Below are positions 9,353 through 57,722 of a stretch of DNA of 64,000 nt, in pieces. The notes beneath the pieces were generated by a model, which was not told the origin of the DNA, searched no databases, and saw only the letters and a list, made by a program, of their open reading frames with translations. The DNA is from Dictyostelium discoideum (Eukaryota), in NCBI GenBank assembly GCA_000004695.1, contig CM000152.2, positions 4,704,001 through 4,768,000 of the forward strand, given 5' to 3'. How positions within the stretch are numbered: the first letter of the stretch is position 1; every line of letters begins with the position of its first letter. The translations under genes and the position numbers were made by a program.

Positions 9353-10268
9353 TTTATTTATAATAATTTAATGAAATCAAATGTTTGAACATCATTTGTG
9401 TTTGTGATAGATTTGAAAGTGATGACAATGTTGCCAGATTCGAATGACCATGACCAATATCCACTCAAGTTTGCATCATGTTTGATTACAATTGTATGAT
9501 TTGAAGTTGCTTCTTGAACTGCTTCTAAAATCATTTCATCTGAACAACGTTTGGTAAGATTTGCAGCAACTTTTTCAACAATACCTGCAAATATATGACC
9601 GAAACTATTCTTTAAATCATCAGCAACTTTTGGATAAACTTCTTGTAATGATGTTTCATCAATTGACCAATCAGCTGATGATTTTAATGCCTTTTTAACA
9701 GCTGCTAAATTATCTTTCATTTTTTGTTCATTTGTTTTAATATTTAAACGAGTGCTTAAAGTGTAAACACCTTGAGTTGGAATAATTGTTTCTAATTTAA
9801 AAGTATTTACATCGTTTGTGTTGCAAATCTTTGGACGGAATAAAATTTGACAATCACCATTTTCAAATTGGAATTTCCAGTATGATGATAATTTTTCATC
9901 AGCACAAATAAAAACAAATTTCTTATTTGGAACAGCTGCTAAAAATGCTTCTTTAATTAATGGATCGGCTCCGACTTTAGCCATGTTTTTAGTAAGATTA
10001 CCAACTACATCTTTATAAAAGATACTACCACAACTATTTGTAACCCAGGAGTCATTACATTTTGTAATAATATCTTCAAAATCAAATTCAATAGCAAAAG
10101 CTTCACCTAATGATTTTTCAATTGCAGCTAAATTTGTTTTTAAAGATTCTTCATTATCTTTTAATGATTTTCTAAAAATTTAAATAAATATAATTAGTTA
10201 CAATTTATTTTAATAAATTAAAAATAAAAATAATAATTACCTTGAAGTTAAAGCGAGAGGCATTTTGG
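9353..10268. repeat. Segmental duplicate unit B
   Basis: Direct sequence comparison. Confidence 0.9.
9358..10263 (-). CDS. Copy 2 of the same gene. Exon 1 is 10263..10241, intron 10240..10172, exon 2 is 10171..9358. The coding sequence differs from copy 1 by ~7 substitutions, of which 2 are non-synonymous (both Ala to Thr).
   Basis: Exons align almost base for base with 7308..8233; the intron and flanks are unrelated. Confidence 0.7.
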
Positions 10269-38881: not shown

Positions 38882-41739
38882 ATGAAAAAAAGAACTAGAA
38901 ATAATAATCAAGAATTTTATGATGGTAGAATTGAAAATATTAAAAAACCAAAAGAAGACCACATAATTAATAATGATAGTGATACTTTAATAGATGATGA
39001 AAATAATAATATTAAAAATTATGAAAATGAATTTAAATTATTTAAATTAATGAATAAAGAAAAGTTAGTAATTAAAAAATTACAAACGATTGCAAAAGAT
39101 AATGGATTACCATTCAGTGGTAATGAGAATGAATTGTATAATAGAATTGAACAATATTATAATATTAAAATTAATTCAGAAAAAGAAGTTAAGCAACAAC
39201 AAGATAATAATCCATTTAATAAAAGTCAACCAATATTATTAATTAAAAATGAGAATGAAATTGCATTTTGGAAAGTTTTTAGAAATAAATCGTTATTTAA
39301 AATGGTGTTCTCAAATTTCAAATTTTCAAATACATTTAATTATTCAAGATTATATTCAGTTAATAATATATTTAAGAGTTTTAGCAATGGTATTGAAATA
39401 ATTAGAGATAAAGTAAAATCAAATAGTTATTTATCATTTATAGCTATAAATGATAAGGACAATATTCAAAAATTCAATTTTAATGGTTTATCAATTATTT
39501 TTGAAAATATTAAAGATGAAAATGAAGAAAATCAGTTATTCTATAACCAATTTATAACAAACTATTGTAATAGGACAGTTCACTTTTGGAGTTTATTCGA
39601 CCACGTTATTGAATCATCAAATTTATTAGCATTGAAATCGTTGCATGGAAATGGAATGATTAAAGAAAAGGTAAAAGTTGATTTTGAAATTAATAGTTAT
39701 TCAAATTTAAAAATATTAAATTACCTAACAAAGAATTTAAGTAAACTATTTATTATTGAAACTATTCAAGTCAATGATTTTAATATATTTAAAGAATTTA
39801 AATTAGGTGAATTAATTGATTTCACTAGAGCATTACTTGATGATAAAAAATATTACAAATTATTAAAACCATTTAATAATAATAAATCATTTTCAAGAGC
39901 TACAAAAGATATTGATGATGAATTATCTTTATTTTTAGAAAATATTACAAAAAATAAATTAATTTTAAATGAAATTAAAAAATTTAAATTTACAGATAAA
40001 GAATTAAATGAAAATTTATTTAAAGTTTTAAAACCATTAACAAATTGGGATAGACATTTTTCAAAGTTAAATCATAATTATAGTAGTGACATTGATAACA
40101 ATAGTAGTATTAATAATGAAATTGAAAATGAAAAACAAAGATTATCAATAATAAAATTAAAAAATTTAGAATTATTTCAAAAAATAGTAAATAATAATGA
40201 TATTTTAAGTAAAAAATTAAAATTGGTTAGTTATGAAGTACATGAAAGTATTTTTAGTAATATTATGACAATTCAAAATGATCAAATTAAAATTGGAAAA
40301 GAAATGGAAGGTAATTTTATTGAACAGAATCAATTAATTCAAAAAATACAAGAAAAACAATTAAAAAAACAAAAAGAAAAAGAAAATAATACTCTTCAAG
40401 AATGTAAAGATGATGATTTAAATAAAAGAAATACAATTTTCAAATATATTACTATATTTTATGATTTAAATTTAATTAAAAAGAAACCAATTGAATATAG
40501 TTTAGCCTTTTTAAATGAATTTGTAGCTACAAATGAAGAATATTGTTGTTGGGATGATCAATTATTTGAATATGGTATGCCAAAAAATGAAATTTTAGTC
40601 AATGGTGTATTATCATCAAATATTAATAATTCAAAGAAAATTGAAATTGTAATGAATTCTAAATTTTTAATGGAAAATCAATTTAGAAATTTTATTTCAA
40701 CAAATTGTACTCGATCATTAATTAAAAATGTTAAATCCATTGATATGTTAGATTTCCTTTTTAAAAACTTTCAAAATCAAATATTTGCTGAAAATAATAA
40801 TAATTGGCAATATTGTAATAGTGTTGAAATTTTACAACATTATGAAAAATTAATGGAATCATTAGGTAGAAAATTCTCATATTCAGTTAATAACCCAGAA
40901 ATTCAATTCCCATTATTATTAATGGCAATTAATAATCCATTTTTATATGATGATGATGATGATGATATTCAAAAAAAAAAAAGTTTAATACTTAAAAAAA
41001 ATATAAGTTTTAATGATTTTTTATTATTAATAGAATCAAATCGTTTTAAGAAACTTGAAATGCGTAAGTCACTCACAGAATTTAATAATGACTCTATTTT
41101 AATTTCAAGATGGATTTCAGATAATTGTATAACCGGTCTTTCTTCTCTAATTGACCATGGTCGTGGTTTTAATACGTATAGTATTAAAATAGAAATTGAT
41201 GTTCAATTACCAAACTATAAAGGAAATGATGGTGATGGTGGTGATAGTAATGGAAAGGTTAAACTATTATTATACCAAAATCAATTAATTCAAATATTAT
41301 ATAATTCAAATCGTTTAGATGATATTTTTAAAATTAATAGTTTATCTGGTAAAGAGATTATTAATTTTATTAATTTCATTGGACCACATATTTCATTACC
41401 ATTCGTTGAAAAGTTATTACAATATTTAATTGATGTGAATTTAAATTTTGAAATTTATACTTTTTTAAGTGCATTGATTTCAAATGGTAATCTTTTAATA
41501 ATTAAATATTTAAATTTAAATCATAGTCATTTTTTTTCAAAAATTACAAAAGAGACCGAAGGATTTTTAGAACCAAGAGAATTAAAAAATTTACTTTCAT
41601 CTTCTGTTCTTTTTGATCATGTTCAAATAGCTGAAATACTTTTTGTTTATACAAATTTAACAAAAGGTGAATTTGAAAGGTCAACTAAACCTTCATATTC
41701 AATGATAGAATTTCTTTATTCTAATAATTTTAAATTATC

Positions 41740-41746
<7 letters not shown>
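38882..41746 (+). CDS. Family member D (954 aa), full length. MKKRTRNNNQEF start type, SAP-like motif [32 protein letters not shown].
   Basis: Same conserved blocks as B and C ([119 protein letters not shown]). Confidence 0.7.
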
Positions 41747-44824: not shown

Positions 44825-46464
44825 TTATTGTTCAGTTGATGGTGATTGTGGAAAAAAAGAAGTTGTATTAAAATGAATTGGGAATGTATCTAAAGTTTTT
44901 AAATTTACTAAAATGATTGTATTTGTTTCAGAGAAATTTGGAATGAAAATTAAACGAACGATTTCATCATTTGGACCTTTTAAAAGTTTAGTTTCAAAAT
45001 GATCTTGATTACCAACAAAGTAAATATCAGGACATTGTTCAATTACGAATGGATCATTATCTAAAGCTGCACAAGTTAGAGTATCTGGAGCAGTCGGTGC
45101 TAAATGTCTCCAAATTAAAGTTGACTCTGTTAATGACATTTTATTTTCATATGTCATATAACGTGAAGCATTTTCAATATTTTGACCACTTGTACCCAAC
45201 AATAATCTACCACCGATTTGTGATTGATATGGGTTGGTGCAAGTTGTTAAATTTGTATTTTGAATTGAGAATGGGAATAAACAACTATTCAAAGGTAATT
45301 GGGGTAATGAAATATTGGTGGGATCATTTGGACCAGGTATGATATCCACTGGAACCGTTTGACAAAGTTCACATAAAAATCCATCTAAATCTTTAATTGG
45401 TATTGCTTTTTTTGCTTGTTTTGCCTGTATTTCCGATTTGGAACTATATCTAACAAATGCTTCAATTGGTTCATTCTCTTTATGAATTGAATTACCAACG
45501 AACAATACCTTACAAATCTTTCCAAGTAAGTCACTACCATTATCAACTAGATTACCTTGTAGATAATCCATAAGTAATTGAGTTTGAAATATATTATTTG
45601 CATCACCAACATTTAAACCTGAAATTAAACAAATGTATGCATCATCTTTCAATGACTCTAAATCTCTTGAATGTGGTTGTGGTGGTATGCCTGGGAAAAC
45701 TATATCCCTAACTTCAAATTCTGCATCTGGTAAACCTTTCCCTAATATTGCAACATTTAAACCTGTAACTAAACTATCAACCATCTCTTTACTACCAATT
45801 AATTTAACTCTACCTGTATTATCTTCAAAAAATAATTTATCTTTTTCACCAATAAATGATTCTCTATTATCTGGTATTGGTAACATTGCTCTCTTTATTT
45901 TTTTTTTTTATTATTAATAATTTATAATATTGAATATATTTATTATTTATATATATATATACATACATCTTGAGCATATGCTTTTAAAATATTTGGTTTT
46001 AATTCCATTTCTTTATATAAAGTACCAATCATAATACATTCATCACCTGGTTTCATATGTAAAATCTTTTGAGTTGGTATACCTGGATATTTAGATTCAA
46101 CATTTTCTACTAATATTGGATTTAATTTCTCTAATCTACTCGCATAAATTGAACTATATTGAAGATTACTATGTTGACCTATTACTAATGATGTGGTTGC
46201 ACCACCACCACCATCACCATTTTTATTGTCATCATTCTTATGAATTGATTTTATGGTTGAATTTGGTTGTTTCTCTAAAAATCTTTCTTTATTATGATGA
46301 ATGATAACATCTAATCTCTCTGTTGTTTTATAATCTTGATCTAATCCAAAATTTTTATCTTTACCATATGATTTCTTTGTTTGTTTGAATTTAGTTTCAA
46401 TTTTTTCAATCCTTTTAAATAATTCAATTAATGATTCATTATCATGATTAATTTCTTCAAACAT
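44825..46464 (-). CDS. polD2: DNA polymerase delta small (B) subunit, POLD2/Cdc1/Pol31. Exon 1 is 46464..45967 (ends …KAYAQD), intron 45966..45893 (GTATGT…aaaAG, phase 0), exon 2 is 45892..44825.
   Basis: Exon 2 matches the POLD2 phosphoesterase domain: VLFVGNSIH, IPGPNDPTNISLPQLPLNSCLFP, NPYQSQIGGRLLLGTSGQNIE, HLAPTAPDTLTCAALDNDPFVIEQCPDIYFVGNQ, FIPNFSETNTIILVNL. Exon 1 is the N-terminal OB domain. Confidence 0.85.
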
Positions 46465-47181
46465 TTTATATTTATATATATTTAAATATTATTTTTTATT
46501 TTTATTTTTATTACAATTTATAAGCACAAACATATAAAAAAAAAAAAAATAAAAATAAAAATAAAAAAATAAAAAAATGAGAAAAAAAAAAAAAAAAAAA
46601 AAAAAAAATTAAAAAAGGGCGCTCTTTTTTTTTTTTTTTATTCAAAAAATGAAAAAAAAAAAAAAAAAAAAAAATTAATCACTTTTAAAAAGACTCTCCA
46701 GTATATAAAATAAATAGAGAAAATGTATTTATATATAATTTTTAAAATCTATATTTCAATTTTTTTTTTTATAAAATAATTTTATTACAATACAATACAA
46801 AACAAAATATTTTTTTTTTTTTTTTTTTTTAAATATAAAGTAATCATTTAAAACAATGTTAATAATAATAAATAGTAGGATTTCCAGATTTGGAAAATTA
46901 AAAATAATAAAAATAATTTTTTAAGTTTTACCACCACACACTTATAGTTTTTTTTTTTTTTTTTAGTCCAATGTCACCACACCATTCGCTACCTTTGTTT
47001 AGTATGCAAAAAAAAATAAAAAATTAAAAATAAAAAATAAAAAATTAAAATGAAAAATATTTGTTGGATGGTCAATTTTATTTTTATTTTTATTTTTATT
47101 TTTATTTTTTTTTTCTCCATTTTAAGAATAATTTTTCCCATTTTTCATTTCAAATAATAATATTAATTTATTATTATTAAA

Positions 47182-49968
<2,787 letters not shown>

Positions 49969-50330
49969 TTTATTAATAGACAATCAAAAAAAAAAAAAAA
50001 AAAAAAAAAAGAAAAAAAATGATCCAATTGATTTTCTTTTTTTTTTTTCCAGAATTAAAAAAAAAAGGATAAAATAAATAAAATTAATAAAAAAATTTAA
50101 AAATTCACCATTCGAAAACAATCACTAATAATTTAATTTTACAAATATTCAAATGGTCAATAGTTGATTGTTTTTCTATTTCATTTTTAATTATAGTTAT
50201 TCAAAAAAAAAAAATATTATTCTATTGTTGATGGTCTGAGATTATTTTTTTAACACTAACAACAGTGAGAATCGTTTATTATACATGAATACATTTCTTC
50301 ACTCCTATCTACACTAATCTTTTCTACTCT

Positions 50331-52005
50331 TCATAAATCTATGAATACTATCTTAATTTTATCAGATTCTGTATATTTGGCAACATGTCTCTGAGATAAA
50401 TCTTTATGAAAATAACCTTTTTGTGAGAAAATTTTACAAGATTCTTTAACTAACTTGAACACTCTATCATCATTCCAGTCCTCATCTGTTAAGATTTTAA
50501 AATATGGAATTATCAATGATCTCTTTTTATTTAAAACAGTAACATGTGTATTAATACCCCATATCTCTTTCCAAAAAAATTTCTCAATTTCTGCGTTGGT
50601 TTCATCTTTGAAAAACTTTATAACGAAAACATCTGAATCAAGATTAAAGGCAAGCCAACATTTTCCATCACCTCCTGATCCTAAATCTTCGAGTAAGAGT
50701 GGATTTTCTAAATCTGGTGGATTTTCAGTATCGATATCGAGAAGTTGTGAATAATTTGGAATGATTTCTTGTTCAAGTTTTACCCAAAACCATGAAGTGG
50801 AATTGATTTGAATATAATGTCTTGAATTTGAACCTTCTTCAGGATTTGTTTCTGAATAGTACATTCTTTGGACAACTGAACATAATGTTTTGACATAGTC
50901 TGGGTCATTCTGCGCAATGACTTGAGATTTATAAACCTTTCTATCAATTCTATTTGTAACTAAACCAGATGGTGATCTTGAAGTTTTTTTACTATTTCTT
51001 AATTTGGGAACAAAAGTTTTTGATAATTTGGTTGGTACAGATTGTGGGTTGATTTTTGATTTGTTTTTACTAATGTTTTCTTTAATGTTGTTAATGTTAT
51101 TTTCGTTAATCAATGGATCTTCTTGTAACCACAATATCTCTGATTCTAAATATGTACTTGTTATACCAATTACTTGTTTTAAATTGTGAAAATATTTAAG
51201 CAAACACATGTAGTCGAAAATTTGGCCACTTATTTTTCTATCTTTCTTATCTGTTAATTCTTTTGATGGTGCCCTTTTAATTTCTATTACACCTTTAGGA
51301 ACATCATTTTTTGAAACGAGCATAAAGTCTGGAACCATGTTGGTAATACCATGTTCAATTATTATATCCATAGAGTCACTGAAACCACAGAGACAAATGA
51401 TATCTTGTAAAAGATCTTGAAAAACTGATATAGTTTGTGCTTCATTTGATACAGTATAGTTTCTATTTTTATGGTTCCACCATACCTTTGAAGTAGTATG
51501 TTTAAATAAATTTTCATCGCAATATGGATTATCTAAAAGAGTAAAACTTGCATCGATTGTTGTGCACTCACCATGTTTTGAATCTGTTTCGGAAGTGGTG
51601 TGTGGAACAAATGAAACCTCACCATTTTTTATTAAATCTTTATTTTAAAAAAAATAATTTGTTAATATTTGAATGTTAAGAATATTTCAATATTGTCATG
51701 TGGTCATATATTCTCAATAACTACTTACGACTGACTTGTAGATTATTTTCAAGATAATCTTGAAGTTCTGATTCTAATTTTAAATTATCTGATTCTAAGG
51801 TTTTTAATTTTAAATTTTTTGATTCTAATTGTTTTGATTGTTCTAAATTCTCTGATTTTAATTTTTCATAAAATATTAACTGGCCAGTGCAACTATTTAA
51901 TTTCAATTTTAAACTATTTAACTTTGATGGGTCATTTTCGTTTTCAATTTTTTTTTTTATTAAATTAATTTTATCTTTTAAAAGTATAATTGGATCAATT
52001 TCCAT
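50331..52005 (-). CDS. ~527 aa protein. Exon 1 is 52005..51729, an N-terminal leucine-heptad coiled coil. Intron 51728..51638 (GTAAGT…aaataaAG, phase 1). Exon 2 is 51637..50331 and contains a PD-(D/E)XK-nuclease-like core (DIIIEHG…MVPDFMLV…GVIEIKR) followed by a C-terminally truncated protein-kinase-like module (LGSGGDGKCWLA…FVIKFFK…YFHKDLSQRHVA…KIVFIDL-stop).
   Basis: The track ORF 50331..51371 continues upstream in frame without a Met; the canonical donor and acceptor join it to ORF 51721..52005. Motif assignments are by eye. Confidence 0.55.
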
Positions 52006-52339
52006 TTTTAATTAATAAATAATATATTATTTAAATTTACTGAATATTAAAACAAAACCAAAAAATTAAAAATAAAAAAAATATAATATAAAAAAAAAAA
52101 AACAATATAAAAAAATATAAAAAAATATAAAAAAAAAAAATAATATAAAAAAAAAAATTAAAGGAAATCTTTTTTATGTATGTGACTAGAATTGAACACA
52201 CGACTAGATTGTTGTGGGTTCGATTCTCGGCTGAAAATATACAAAAATTTATGATATTATAAACTGAGAAAACTTATAATTTCATATTTATATGGTGCAC
52301 CACATAATCCAACACATAAAACCCATTTAATAAACGTCA

Positions 52340-53100
52340 ACAGTTGGTTGTTTGTGAGGATCATTTATGATACATGAATACATTTCTTCACTCCTATCTA
52401 CACTAATATCTTCTACTCTTGATAAATCTATGAATAACAGGTAACATGTCTCTTAGATAAATCTTTATGAAAATAACCTTTTTGTGAGAAAATTTTACAG
52501 ATTCTTTAACTAATTTGAGCATTCCATCATCATTCCAGTCCTCATCTGATAAGATTTTAAAATATGGCATTATCAATGATCTCTTTTTATTTAAAATAGA
52601 AGCATGTGTATTAATACAAGTTAATGATGCTATTGAGCCAAATTGATTTGAATTCCAAATTCTAATGACCTTATCATTCGAAACTATTGCAAGGAAAACA
52701 TACCACTATATTTTATCGGTTAATCAAGGTTTGGCACAGTATAGTTTCTATTTTTATAATTCAAACATTTCCTTGAAAAAATATATTCTAAAAGTTTTTG
52801 ATCACAATATGGCATTATATAAAAGAGTAAATTTTGCATCTATTGTTGCACACTCATCTCTATCAGAAGTGCCATATCGAACAAATGAAACCTCTGGTAC
52901 ACCATTTTCTATTAAAATTTTGTTTTAAAAAAAAAAATTTCTTAATATTCGAATGTTAAGAATATATCAATATTGGCTATTTTTTCATAACATATACTCA
53001 ATAAATACTTACAATTAACCAATCGTTGATTTTCATGATAAAGGTAATTTTAAATTATCTGATTCTAAATTTTTTAATTTTAAATTATCCGATTCTAATT
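52340..53100 (-). pseudogene. Decayed tandem copy of the 50331..52005 gene. It retains the 3' end (52340..52620 matches 50290..50570), part of the intron-proximal region and the 5' coiled-coil exon remnants (52950..53100), with the middle ~800 bp deleted and small indels.
   Basis: Direct alignment of 52330..52620 with 50280..50560 and of 52740..53100 with 51450..51810. Confidence 0.6.
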
Positions 53101-53249
53101 TAAAAAAAAAAAAAAAAAAAAAAATTATTCCACTTGTAATTTCACTCATTTTATATTTTTCCTTAACGTCTATTATTATGACCTCAAATTTGAATAATTA
53201 TTCATCACCCCAAGATAACTGATTTATCTACAAAATTCATATCACCTTC

Positions 53250-53284
<35 letters not shown>

Positions 53285-53539
53285 ATAATAAATTAAAAAT
53301 AACAATAATATTAATAATATTAATAATAATAAACTGGTCAGTCCCCAATTATTTGATTTTATTTTTTATTTTTATTTTTTTTATTTTTATTTTTTTTATT
53401 TTTATTTTTCATTTTTTTTTTTTATTTTTTTTTTTTTTTTATTTTTTTTTTTATTTTTTATTTTTTTTTGAAAAAATAAAAAATAAAAAATAAAAAATAA
53501 AAAATAAAAAATAAAAAATAAAAAAAATATATATCGCAC

Positions 53540-53660
53540 ACCCCTCTCTTTTTCTTATTCTCTCTCTCTTTCTCTCTTTCTCTCTTTCTCTCTCACACAC
53601 ACACACACACACTCTCTCTCTCTCTCTCTCTCTATCTTCTCACACACTCACATATATATT
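53540..53660. repeat. Compound (CT)n/(CA)n/(TCTC) microsatellite island in an otherwise A/T-homopolymer intergenic region
   Basis: Direct. Confidence 0.9.
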
Positions 53661-53941
53661 AACACCCAAAATAATAATAATAAAAAAAATAATAAAATAA
53701 ATTAAAAATTTAATTAAAAATAAAATAAAATTTAAATTAAATAAAAATAAAAATAAACCAGTTTATATAATTAATCAAATAATCATCAAAAAAAAAAAAT
53801 TAAAACAATTTATTATTTAATTTATTAAAATTTTTTTTTTAAAAAAAACCCAATTAAAATAAAAAAAAAGAAACCAATTAAATAATAATAATAATAACAA
53901 AACAAAAAAATAAATAATAATATAATAATATAAACTTTAGG

Positions 53942-56392
<2,451 letters not shown>

Positions 56393-56768
56393 ATAAATCA
56401 AAAAAAAAAAAAACTGAAAACTGAAAACTAAAAACTAACTAAAAAAAAAAAAAAAAAAACATAAAATTAAAAAATAATTTATATTAAAAAAAAAATAATT
56501 ATAAAAAATAATTATTTTATTTAAATTAATAATCTAAAGTAAATAACTAATTTACTATAAAAATAAAAAATATCTAAAAATAATTTTAAATTATTTATTT
56601 GGCCAAACAAAATATCCAAGTTTTTTTTTTTTAATTTCAATTTTTTTTTTATTTTTTTTCTTTTTTTCAATTTTTTATTTTTTTATTTTTTTATTTTTTT
56701 ATTTGTGTGTTTTGTTATTATTACTATTATTATTATTATTATTACCATTACTATTTTTAAAAATTAAA

Positions 56769-57722
56769 ATGTTTAGGGGAATTTATAAAGGTTCATTACC
56801 TCCAATTGATCCAAGTTCAATTCATCATGGTGAGAGTTTAGCAGATCAATTACAAGATAAAGATTATTATTCTGTTGGATGGAATCAATATTTTGACCAA
56901 TCAAGAGATATTAAATTACCAGGTACAGAGAATACATTTAGGATCTATGAAAGTAATGTTGATGTTGTAGATAATGGTTATTTATTTGTATTTTTACATG
57001 GTGGTGGTTATACTTCATTATCTTGGAGTTTAGTAGTTGTATGTAATTTAATAATACCAATTATATTTATATTTATATATAAATATATTAACTATTCTTT
57101 TTTTTTTCTTTTTTTTTTTTTTTTATAGGATAAAATTAAAAAAAAAAATTTAGAAAAAAAAGTTAGAATGATGTGTTATGATTGTAGAGGTCATGGTGAA
57201 ACTAAAACAAGTGATGATTCAAATTTATCTATTGAAACAATGGTTGATGATTGTGCAAATTTAATAAATTATTATCAAGATATTATTTATAAAAATGAAG
57301 GTGGTGGTGGTGGTAATGATGACGATGATCAAAAAGAAAGATTAAAAGTAATTATTGTTGGTCATAGTATGGGTGGTTCAGTTGTAATTAAAACTAGTTC
57401 AACCAATAGAATTAATAATTTATTTGGTTTAATTGTTATTGATGTTGTTGAAGGTACTGCTTTGTTAGCTTTATCAAGTATGAAATCTATTTTAGCAAAG
57501 AGACCAAAATCATTCGATTCTGTTAAAGATGCTATTAAATGGTCCATTTCAAGTAATACTGTAAAGAATATTGAATCTGCAAGAGTTAGTGTACCTTCAC
57601 AAATTAGATTAAATCCTGATGATGGAAAATATCATTGGATTGCTCATTTAGAGAAAACTGATAAATATTGGAATGGTTGGTTATTATTATTATTTTTATA
57701 TTATATTCTATATAGTATACTA

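Follow-up and report, generated by a model that had tools for sequence, protein, structure and literature searches.

What does a Dictyostelium discoideum gene encode that appears to join a nuclease to a kinase, and why does a decayed copy lie beside it? The question is raised by DDB_G0281645, a minus-strand gene at 50331..52005 of a 64,000-nucleotide stretch of the AX4 genome (NCBI GenBank assembly GCA_000004695.1, contig CM000152.2, positions 4,704,001 to 4,768,000), here called the window, whose coordinates are used throughout. A preliminary description made from the letters alone had noted a coiled coil, a restriction-endonuclease-like core and a kinase-like end in one spliced gene; its observation is confirmed and its interpretation is partly supported. 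Reasoning by analogy with characterized systems, we consider it probable that DDB_G0281645 encodes a nuclease effector whose activity is gated by the kinase attached to it, and that it is now degenerating in AX4.

The spliced gene model is reproduced in full. Exon 1 (52005..51729, 277 nt) begins with the ATG at 52005, an intron of 91 nt (51728..51638) opens with GT at 51728 and closes with the AG ending at 51638, and exon 2 (51637..50334, 1304 nt) runs to a TGA stop at 50333..50331, giving a product of 527 amino acids. Cluster look-up and pairwise comparison show that 527 of 527 residues are shared with XP_640555.1 of D. discoideum AX4, a hypothetical protein listed in UniProt as Q54TN6, 'DUF5898 domain-containing protein' (DUF, domain of unknown function). 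The motifs quoted earlier, IIEHGITNMVPDFMLVSKNDVPKGVIEIKR, LGSGGDGKCWLA, VIKFF, HKDLSQRHV and a terminal IDL, all lie in this single spliced frame. DDB_G0281645 is a real protein-coding gene, known and catalogued, previously annotated and uncharacterized; a literature search returned no paper naming it and one naming DUF5898, as a member of the Pfam PKinase clan (PMC9758233). What is new is the HsdR-like nuclease in DUF5898 proteins, a design like that of SPOK and CRN8, and a truncated AX4 allele next to a pseudogene, with lesions that are specific to strains. The locus is a good lead of moderate interest, not a discovery.

Domains of the DUF5898 protein

DUF5898 proteins have an HsdR-like nuclease as their N-terminal half, a feature new relative to existing annotation. 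In DDB_G0281645, a PD-(D/E)XK domain of the HsdR-N/BpuSI type occupies residues ~153-288 (51051..51458, minus strand, as are all parts of the gene given below), with a core of alpha-beta-beta-beta-alpha-beta-beta order that includes the alpha-beta-beta-beta-alpha-beta fold of PD-(D/E)XK enzymes. The catalytic motif E187 ... P195-D196 ... E211-I-K213 (51276..51356) comprises the acidic residue on beta1-beta2 (the PD) and the (D/E)xK of beta3, both conserved in relatives: in 42-sequence alignments (A3/A4), conservation of E187, D196, E211 and K213 is 90% or higher, up to invariance (E118 and K120 invariant). It is followed by a QxxxY motif of the RecB/HsdR type, Q231-I-F-D-Y235 (51210..51224), which is conserved across the family as GQxxDY, and the family consensus reads E...rPDiWv....G.PiGVvEVKkP....GQ..DYM...FGI.TTY.eWR. 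QxxxY is known from RecB-family and HsdR nucleases, its role in HsdR has been described (PMC2475608), and the fungal protein SPOK3 is reported to carry it as well (PMC6660238). The best curated-profile match of this half of DDB_G0281645 is a faint TnsA_N (E 0.067), and PADLOC returned no match to the protein, while relatives match Pfam HSDR_N (7 of 59, best E 3.9e-7), Cas4 (1.9e-4) and PADLOC PD_DExK (3.2e-5). The earlier call of a restriction-endonuclease-like E…PD…(E)xK core is correct, and the N-terminal half of DUF5898 proteins should carry the label HsdR-like PD-(D/E)XK nuclease.

The C-terminal end (50334..50723) is a minimal domain resembling the eukaryotic protein kinases (ePKs), recognized by Pfam, a family profile, Foldseek and conservation. 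The Pfam model for DUF5898, PF19250, matches residues 410-514 over its whole length (1-109/109) with 115.5 bits against a cut-off of 28.9 (E 1.4e-33). When a family profile made from 19 diverse relatives was compared with solved protein kinases, the best match was CK2alpha' (E 2.8e-6, 29.6 bits) in the correct register, pairing the G-loops, the VIK Lys with the beta3 Lys, the alphaC Glu, HKDLSQRHV with HRDVKPHNV, and IDL with IDW. A direct PDB sequence search with the single DDB_G0281645 protein gave no match. Foldseek with the AlphaFold model (AF2; predicted local distance difference test, pLDDT, 80.6; predicted template modelling score, pTM, 0.81) returned kinases only, the best target coverage being that of NleH2 (TMt 0.54) and OspG (TMt 0.48).

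The residues point the same way. DDB_G0281645 has the G-loop (G412-G417), beta3 Lys (K433), alphaC Glu (E444), HxD Asp (H503-K-D505) and DFG-position Asp (D526) expected of an ePK or eukaryotic-like kinase (ELK), and G414, G417, K433, E444, H503, D505 and D526 are at least 90% conserved family-wide. The catalytic-loop Asn, a metal ligand, is replaced by His510, and the position is His in 93 and Asn in 13 of 110 family sequences. The full canonical C-lobe (activation segment, APE, alphaF-alphaI) is absent, the family ending 24-30 residues past the DFG Asp. The kinase-like call of the preliminary description thus stands on the Pfam, clan, CK2 and Foldseek results, and so does its placing of IDL at the DFG position; its suggestion of a pseudokinase or an APH-like fold does not, because the family keeps all five kinase elements at 90% or more. 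Judged by conservation and modelling, DUF5898 is not an obvious pseudokinase family; its kinase is a compact ePK-like one lacking the activation segment and substrate-binding C-lobe.

Nuclease and kinase occur together across a large family. An exhaustive HMMER search retrieved 616 cluster representatives (E<=1e-3; 268 of them at <=1e-10), and for most the alignment spans both halves; a word-indexed homolog search, swamped by low complexity, gave 2 matches only. Named members come from dictyostelids (Tieghemostelium, Synstelium), Cavostelium and an MMETSP marine protist transcriptome, and many others from eukaryotic metagenome or transcriptome contigs. The named members all carry PF19250 and none has an annotated nuclease domain. 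With 616 cluster representatives across diverse protists, this is not the lineage-specific family that had been raised as a possibility. The conserved order is a variable header, the HsdR-N/BpuSI-type nuclease, a disordered linker with a small middle domain, and the minimal kinase. In DDB_G0281645, the low-complexity linker spans residues ~289-315 (50970..51050) and is predicted to be disordered (pLDDT <50 at exon-2 residues 195-216 / 195-221), and the middle region between it and the kinase, residues ~316-397 (50724..50969), is conserved and confidently modelled as beta-beta-alpha-beta-beta. Alignments and models together establish two predicted folds, two conserved sets of catalytic residues and an obligatory linkage of the domains in the family.

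The N-termini of family members are interchangeable: coiled coils in the dictyostelids and several others, and Ubl-like, SAM-like (both sub-threshold matches) or transmembrane headers elsewhere, are joined to the rest via a 'GLPPL..S.SS..H' linker. In its longer form, 'GLPPL..(G)S.SS.S..H...a.....F', this motif stands ahead of the nuclease in most members, irrespective of the header, and it is reminiscent of a module junction. Family conservation profiles identify a conserved pre-nuclease segment in DDB_G0281645 (residues 93-152, 51459..51637) that matches the family-wide 'GLPPL..S.SS.S..H...F'; the motif itself (51566-51637, residues 93-117) is degenerate there and reads LIKNGEVSFVPHTTSETDSKHGEC. 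The N-terminus of DDB_G0281645 has no Pfam match and, by inspection, no obvious signal peptide. Its helical, coiled-coil-like region holds a 30-nt (10-aa, LESxNLKLKT-type) tandem repeat at 51775..51862, for which Tandem Repeats Finder (TRF) gives 2.8 copies in AX4, against 4.7 in the other strain (assembly GCA_054859385.1, 'D. discoideum'), whose syntenic sequence, L002, has an additional ESENLEQSKQLESKNLKLKTL repeat unit. The leucine-heptad coiled coil of the preliminary description could not be demonstrated, as a crude a/d-occupancy test did no better than shuffles (1295/2000); what can be demonstrated is the 30-nt repeat encoding LESxNLKL.

Truncation in AX4 and turnover of copies

In AX4, the kinase stops one residue past the DFG-position Asp, at the TGA at 50331..50333, and this early stop had been read as a sign of a pseudokinase. 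In alignments of the 3' ends, the AX4 upstream copy (DNA TCA) and the relatives P0001, P0003 and P0173 have a Ser codon at this site, and the three relatives read IDLSRVEKISV... in their proteins. Among 97 relatives, the chain continues past the Asp for 11-96 residues (median 29) with the pattern L.rV....a..Ml..L. An untranslated remnant of this conserved tail, RVEKISVDRSEEMYSCIINDSH..., follows the TGA in frame (50259..50330), and downstream of the stop AX4 has an 11-nt frameshifting deletion relative to the three other copies. Because the tail is still encoded after the TGA, the other copies keep the Ser codon and, among the copies compared, the 11 nt are lost only in AX4, the comparison indicates that the short C-terminus is the product of two derived lesions of the AX4 lineage (TCA>TGA and the 11-nt deletion), not a family trait. 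The stop is therefore an AX4-specific nonsense mutation, relatives running 24-30 residues further. The nuclease and the kinase core are intact, and, since the conserved C-terminal tail has been lost through both lesions, the AX4 gene is most likely a hypomorphic or recently inactivated allele. It should be flagged in annotation as a C-terminally truncated allele with an adjoining pseudogene.

That pseudogene, on the same strand at 52339..53100, is detected by BLASTN and TBLASTN. By BLAST, the block 53100..52730 is 74.6% identical to 51830..51445, intron included, and the block 52617..52354 is 83.6% identical to 50557..50265. The copy lacks a central ~890 bp (nuclease core and kinase N-lobe) and the first ~175 nt of the coding sequence, ATG included, and what remains lies in different frames with stops and frameshifts. 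The preliminary description had seen a copy with both ends and without the central ~800 bp: the copy is real and its centre lost, and its true 5' end is absent. BLAST found no further copy of the gene in the window.

Between the two copies, a ~45-nt imperfect palindrome at 52186..52230 (plus strand) lies inside a ~75-nt block that is near-invariant upstream of all three copies. This non-coding block (52165-52245; counterparts at L002:4828-4923 and L001:~9700-9800) is ~180-240 nt upstream of the ATG, in flanking DNA that is 74-90% identical, and ~20 nt in from the edge of the unit that was duplicated (about 50230..52255). On the plus strand the palindrome folds with a free energy of -24.4 kcal/mol (z -4.5, 0/200 shuffles), and where AX4 has an A.G mismatch the other strain has an A-U pair. 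The palindrome may belong to a promoter, form an antisense hairpin RNA or be a structure that is related to the duplication. One of its arms resembles a tRNA B box, but a tRNA gene or remnant between the copies is rejected, as ARAGORN found 0 genes there, Rfam found none, and the B-box-like string is one arm of the palindrome.

Comparison with GCA_054859385.1 shows how the copies have fared elsewhere. The syntenic order in that assembly is GBP, Pol delta B, SLAC1-like gene and DUF5898 pair, and the partial upstream copy is again present (L002, 126-aa model); the partial copy being in both strains, the tandem pair is older than the strain split. The counterpart of DDB_G0281645 has lost residues ~161-280, the nuclease core, and the stretch encoding residues 281-327 is inverted, with kinase and tail intact. 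A third copy, P0001, lies ~20 kb away (89.7% nucleotide identity over 1.2 kb) at a site where AX4 has none; its nuclease core carries PD>SN, EIK>EFR and an in-frame stop, and its kinase and tail are intact. Two further annotated relatives, P0002 and P0046, have internal deletions. Each D. discoideum copy examined thus bears its own distinct lesion, and copy number varies between strains. The ratio of nonsynonymous to synonymous substitution rates (dN/dS), from small counts, is 0.67 for the kinase half between AX4 and the syntenic ortholog, and 0.74 overall, 0.97 in the nuclease and 0.48 in the kinase between AX4 and P0001.

Several side observations accompany these copies. The P0001 unit, 1.84 kb long, sits in the middle of an array of large paralogous genes (window ~21300-41800; L001:1-21632) that is syntenic between the strains, has many internal cross-matches, and includes a 954-aa open reading frame at 38882-41746 with a weak SAP-like match. 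Ahead of its internally deleted nuclease-kinase module, P0002 (Dictyostelium cf. discoideum, ACTFIY_004925) carries a SNARE domain (PF05739) and a transmembrane segment; this fusion could reflect an artefact of the gene model or a genuine swap of headers. In addition, GCA_054859385.1 is 86-96% identical to window positions 46000-57000, coding sequence included, a high divergence for one species, which suggests from sequence comparison that the assembly represents a divergent lineage or cryptic species.

With local duplication, differences in copy number and position between strains, near-neutral dN/dS and a different lesion in each copy, the D. discoideum subfamily has the look of a declining gene family of the conflict type. 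That other copies have repeatedly lost the nuclease and kept the kinase is what selection against a toxic part would yield; chance also fits. The alternative that bears on the same data is that DUF5898 proteins are ordinary enzymes of DNA or RNA processing or repair under housekeeping regulation by the kinase, their duplication and decay being neutral turnover. Normal chromosomal neighbours without a transposon signature, the kept synteny of the pair, a widespread family with both active sites conserved, and a more distant D. discoideum-group paralog, P0159 (33% identity), that looks intact would all suit such enzymes. They would not lead one to expect variable headers, lineage-specific expansion, presence/absence polymorphism, near-neutral dN/dS and independent lesions in every close copy, and among the named matches there is no named homologue from well-studied model eukaryotes. 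We regard the housekeeping explanation as quite improbable.

The setting of the gene bears on the link to a selfish element that the preliminary description raised. The neighbours of DDB_G0281645 encode a GBP-like GTPase, DNA Pol delta subunit B, a SLAC1-like channel and a kinase; as these are normal chromosomal genes without a transposon signature, a transposon or mobile-element setting is rejected, and the check for nearby tRNA genes or transposons found neither adjoining the gene. The suggested link is plausible in view of copy-number polymorphism, lesions in each copy and a Spok/Crinkler-like architecture, and it fails where adjoining transposons or tRNA genes are concerned; 'selfish'-type dynamics of the locus remain a plausible reading. 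The two flanking genes are ordinary and appear unrelated to the DUF5898 locus. The product of the one at 47182-49968 (plus strand), 928 aa long, contains a SLAC1-type anion-channel domain (1.7e-23) and also matches DEP weakly, and the one at 53942-55459 (plus strand) encodes a poly-N/Q-rich protein whose first exon ends within a canonical protein kinase N-lobe. The window as a whole has an extremely high AT content, poly-N/Q tracts and short introns bounded by GT..AG.

A proposed nuclease effector and its kinase

By what logic might a nuclease and a kinase be joined so persistently? In our reading, the HsdR-type nuclease would be the effector, probably cutting DNA and potentially toxic, and the attached kinase would gate or neutralize it, acting in cis or in trans and using ATP to phosphorylate either itself or the target; the variable header probably sets localization, oligomerization or target. 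The analogy is drawn from SPOK of Podospora and CRN8 of Phytophthora. In SPOK3, nuclease residue K240 is required for killing and kinase residue D667 for resistance, and the protein without its kinase, or with a dead one, is toxic and can be rescued in trans (PMC6660238). In CRN8, kinase-dead mutants still kill and restriction-endonuclease (REase) mutants do not, and, for this class of protein, the REase is described as the toxin and the kinase as the regulator, in the account that a review gives of Zhang et al. 2016 (PMC5289972). HsdR and BpuSI, in which the same kind of nuclease domain is subordinate to a partner using an NTP or cofactor, offer a looser parallel.

Several points weigh against this proposal. 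Both activities are predicted from residues and folds only, and the nuclease-toxin/kinase-regulator model is borrowed by analogy. The His at the catalytic-loop Asn position means that phosphotransfer chemistry could be atypical. The dN/dS values rest on small counts. Specific homology to SPOK lacks support, the nuclease halves aligning at E 0.014 and the SPOK proteins carrying PF27653 and not PF19250. Furthermore, the SPOK logic would make a protein toxic whose nuclease is intact and whose kinase is crippled, yet AX4 tolerates it; therefore the allele is probably silent, dead or unstable, or the truncated kinase suffices, or the model does not transfer.

Single-protein nuclease–kinase toxin/antidote systems have been characterized so far only in fungi (Spok) and among oomycete effectors (CRN8), and a protist DUF family of ~600 clusters, uncharacterized, with the same build and both active sites conserved, gives the DUF a testable function. 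Dictyostelium, which is genetically tractable and in which social and sexual conflict are well studied, is a possible experimental system.

Comparison with SPOK, Crinkler and other systems

Fusions of nuclease-like and kinase-like parts had been called uncommon, but SPOK and CRN8 already have such a combination. SPOK3 has at its N-terminus a coiled coil that a repeat of variable length encodes, as well as a PD-(D/E)XK nuclease for which HsdR is the best HHpred match, linkers predicted to be disordered, a cluster of Cys residues and an ELK-like kinase (PMC6660238). The SPOK proteins (Spok1-4 of Podospora and Fusarium homologs) and DUF5898 share the order of their parts, namely a repeat-coded N-terminus, an HsdR-type nuclease, a linker and a small C-terminal kinase, and DDB_G0281645 has this architecture, the coiled coil itself not being demonstrated there. 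Both families are multi-copy, with copy number and position varying between strains. SPOK alone has the Cys/His cluster before the kinase, required for resistance, and a longer region past the DFG; DUF5898 alone has the beta-beta-alpha-beta-beta middle domain and the 'GLPPL' linker. SPOK is fungal and DUF5898 protist, and killer and resistance functions have been assayed for SPOK alone.

The likeness raises the possibility that DUF5898 is a distant true homologue of SPOK, a single-protein toxin-antidote selfish element that biases its own transmission, the sexual macrocyst cycle and chimeras being possible settings. The comparison used Fusarium Spok1 sequences and 120 SPOK homologs. Whole-profile hhalign of DUF5898 against SPOK gives one collinear alignment of 441 columns (probability 84.9%, E 6.4e-6) with the functional motifs in register, which favours homology, as do the SPOK3-like order of parts and the polymorphic copy number and position. 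The lesions also fall into two types: nuclease-dead and kinase-intact (the L002 ortholog and P0001), resembling a resistant non-killer Spok2 allele, and the opposite, nuclease-intact and kinase-truncated, in AX4. When domains are aligned separately, however, only the kinase halves align significantly (E 5e-8), the nuclease pair (E 0.014, probability 3%) being the best non-kinase pair and above all reversed-profile controls but unconvincing. The family hidden Markov model (HMM) scores just 9.9 bits against Spok1, where the best of 2000 shuffles reaches 5.1, and the match covers the catalytic-loop/DFG segment only; the family kinase scores higher against CK2. Spok1 has no match to PF19250; the 120 SPOK homologs list PF27653 and Pkinase, PF19250 being listed for none of them, and no DUF5898 member lists PF27653. 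Moreover, the SPOK-type C-x3-C...H cluster was not found in the DUF5898 consensus, the SPOK Cys region and the DUF5898 middle domain gave no alignment, and Dictyostelium offers no genetic evidence of drive.

Membership of the SPOK sequence family is rejected, since Pfam, HMM-versus-sequence and per-domain hhalign comparisons are unsupportive beyond the kinase. DUF5898 and SPOK share an architecture and domain sub-types, but specific common ancestry is not demonstrated. True homology is, in our estimate, unlikely. It is a similarly doubtful proposition that DUF5898 proteins are protist counterparts of Spok, self-contained killer/antidote elements, with an HsdR-type nuclease that poisons cells and an attached kinase that shields the carriers, whose lesions are footprints of past cycles of drive and suppression; if they were, the nuclease-dead lineage, the kinase-truncated AX4 allele and the extra copy 20 kb away would be such footprints in a social amoeba.

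The interchangeable headers bring in the Crinklers, and the corresponding explanation is that DUF5898 is a header-swapped branch of Crinkler/CR proteins, an REase+kinase toxin delivered to or used against other cells (prey, competitors or pathogens), with the header setting its trafficking. As relayed in the review of Zhang et al. 2016, REase+kinase forms about one-sixth of CR C-termini (PMC5289972), and CR homologues have been reported in amoebozoans. Like DUF5898, CRN8 (Phytophthora infestans, D2 domain) joins a modular header to an REase and a kinase, has ~350-400 residues ahead of the catalytic Asp, and shows family expansion with many pseudogenes (10 paralogs and 38 pseudogenes; PMC3426532) and a proposed nuclease-toxin/kinase-regulator logic; its mutants fit such a toxin, and the coiled-coil, Ubl-like, SAM-like and transmembrane headers joined to a constant DUF5898 module by a conserved linker recall the same modularity. 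In contrast, CRN8 is an RD kinase (RD at 469-470 of 599; PMC3426532) with an activation loop and a longer C-lobe, unlike the minimal non-RD kinase of DUF5898. No Pfam Crinkler header was found in 59 members, nor at E<=10 on 8 N-termini, and neither LxLFLAK nor HVLVxxP occurs in 223 family sequences; on the lack of header domain and junction motifs, Crinkler membership is rejected. The sub-threshold level of the Ubl and SAM hints, and a DDB_G0281645 N-terminus devoid of Pfam match and obvious signal peptide, also tell against a Crinkler branch, which we hold to be distinctly unlikely.

The reading of DUF5898 as a nuclease gated by its own kinase also meets partial likenesses elsewhere. The nuclease domains of HsdR (type I) and BpuSI/DrdV (type IIG/IIL) have the D..ExK and QxxxY motifs in common with DUF5898 (PMC2475608), and an N-terminal nuclease is fused, as in DUF5898, to a domain that uses an NTP or cofactor. 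There, the partner is a helicase motor or methyltransferase rather than a kinase, and these are prokaryotic defence enzymes working in multi-subunit complexes. The minimal kinases NleH, OspG, Rio, Bud32 and Kdo/WaaP have the same compact core of G-loop, beta3 Lys, alphaC Glu, HxD and DFG Asp without the activation segment or substrate-binding C-lobe, and 3 family members match Pfam Kdo. DUF5898 differs from them in its fusion to a nuclease, the replacement of the catalytic-loop Asn by His in ~85% of members, and a Pfam family of its own. In Ire1 and RNase L, as proposed for DUF5898, a kinase-fold domain controls a covalently linked nuclease, via nucleotide binding or autophosphorylation with oligomerization, but the domain order is reversed, the RNase is a KEN domain rather than PD-(D/E)XK, and there is no sequence relationship. 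The nuclease–kinase design that DUF5898 has in common with SPOK and CRN8 suggests spread or repeated origin across eukaryotes.

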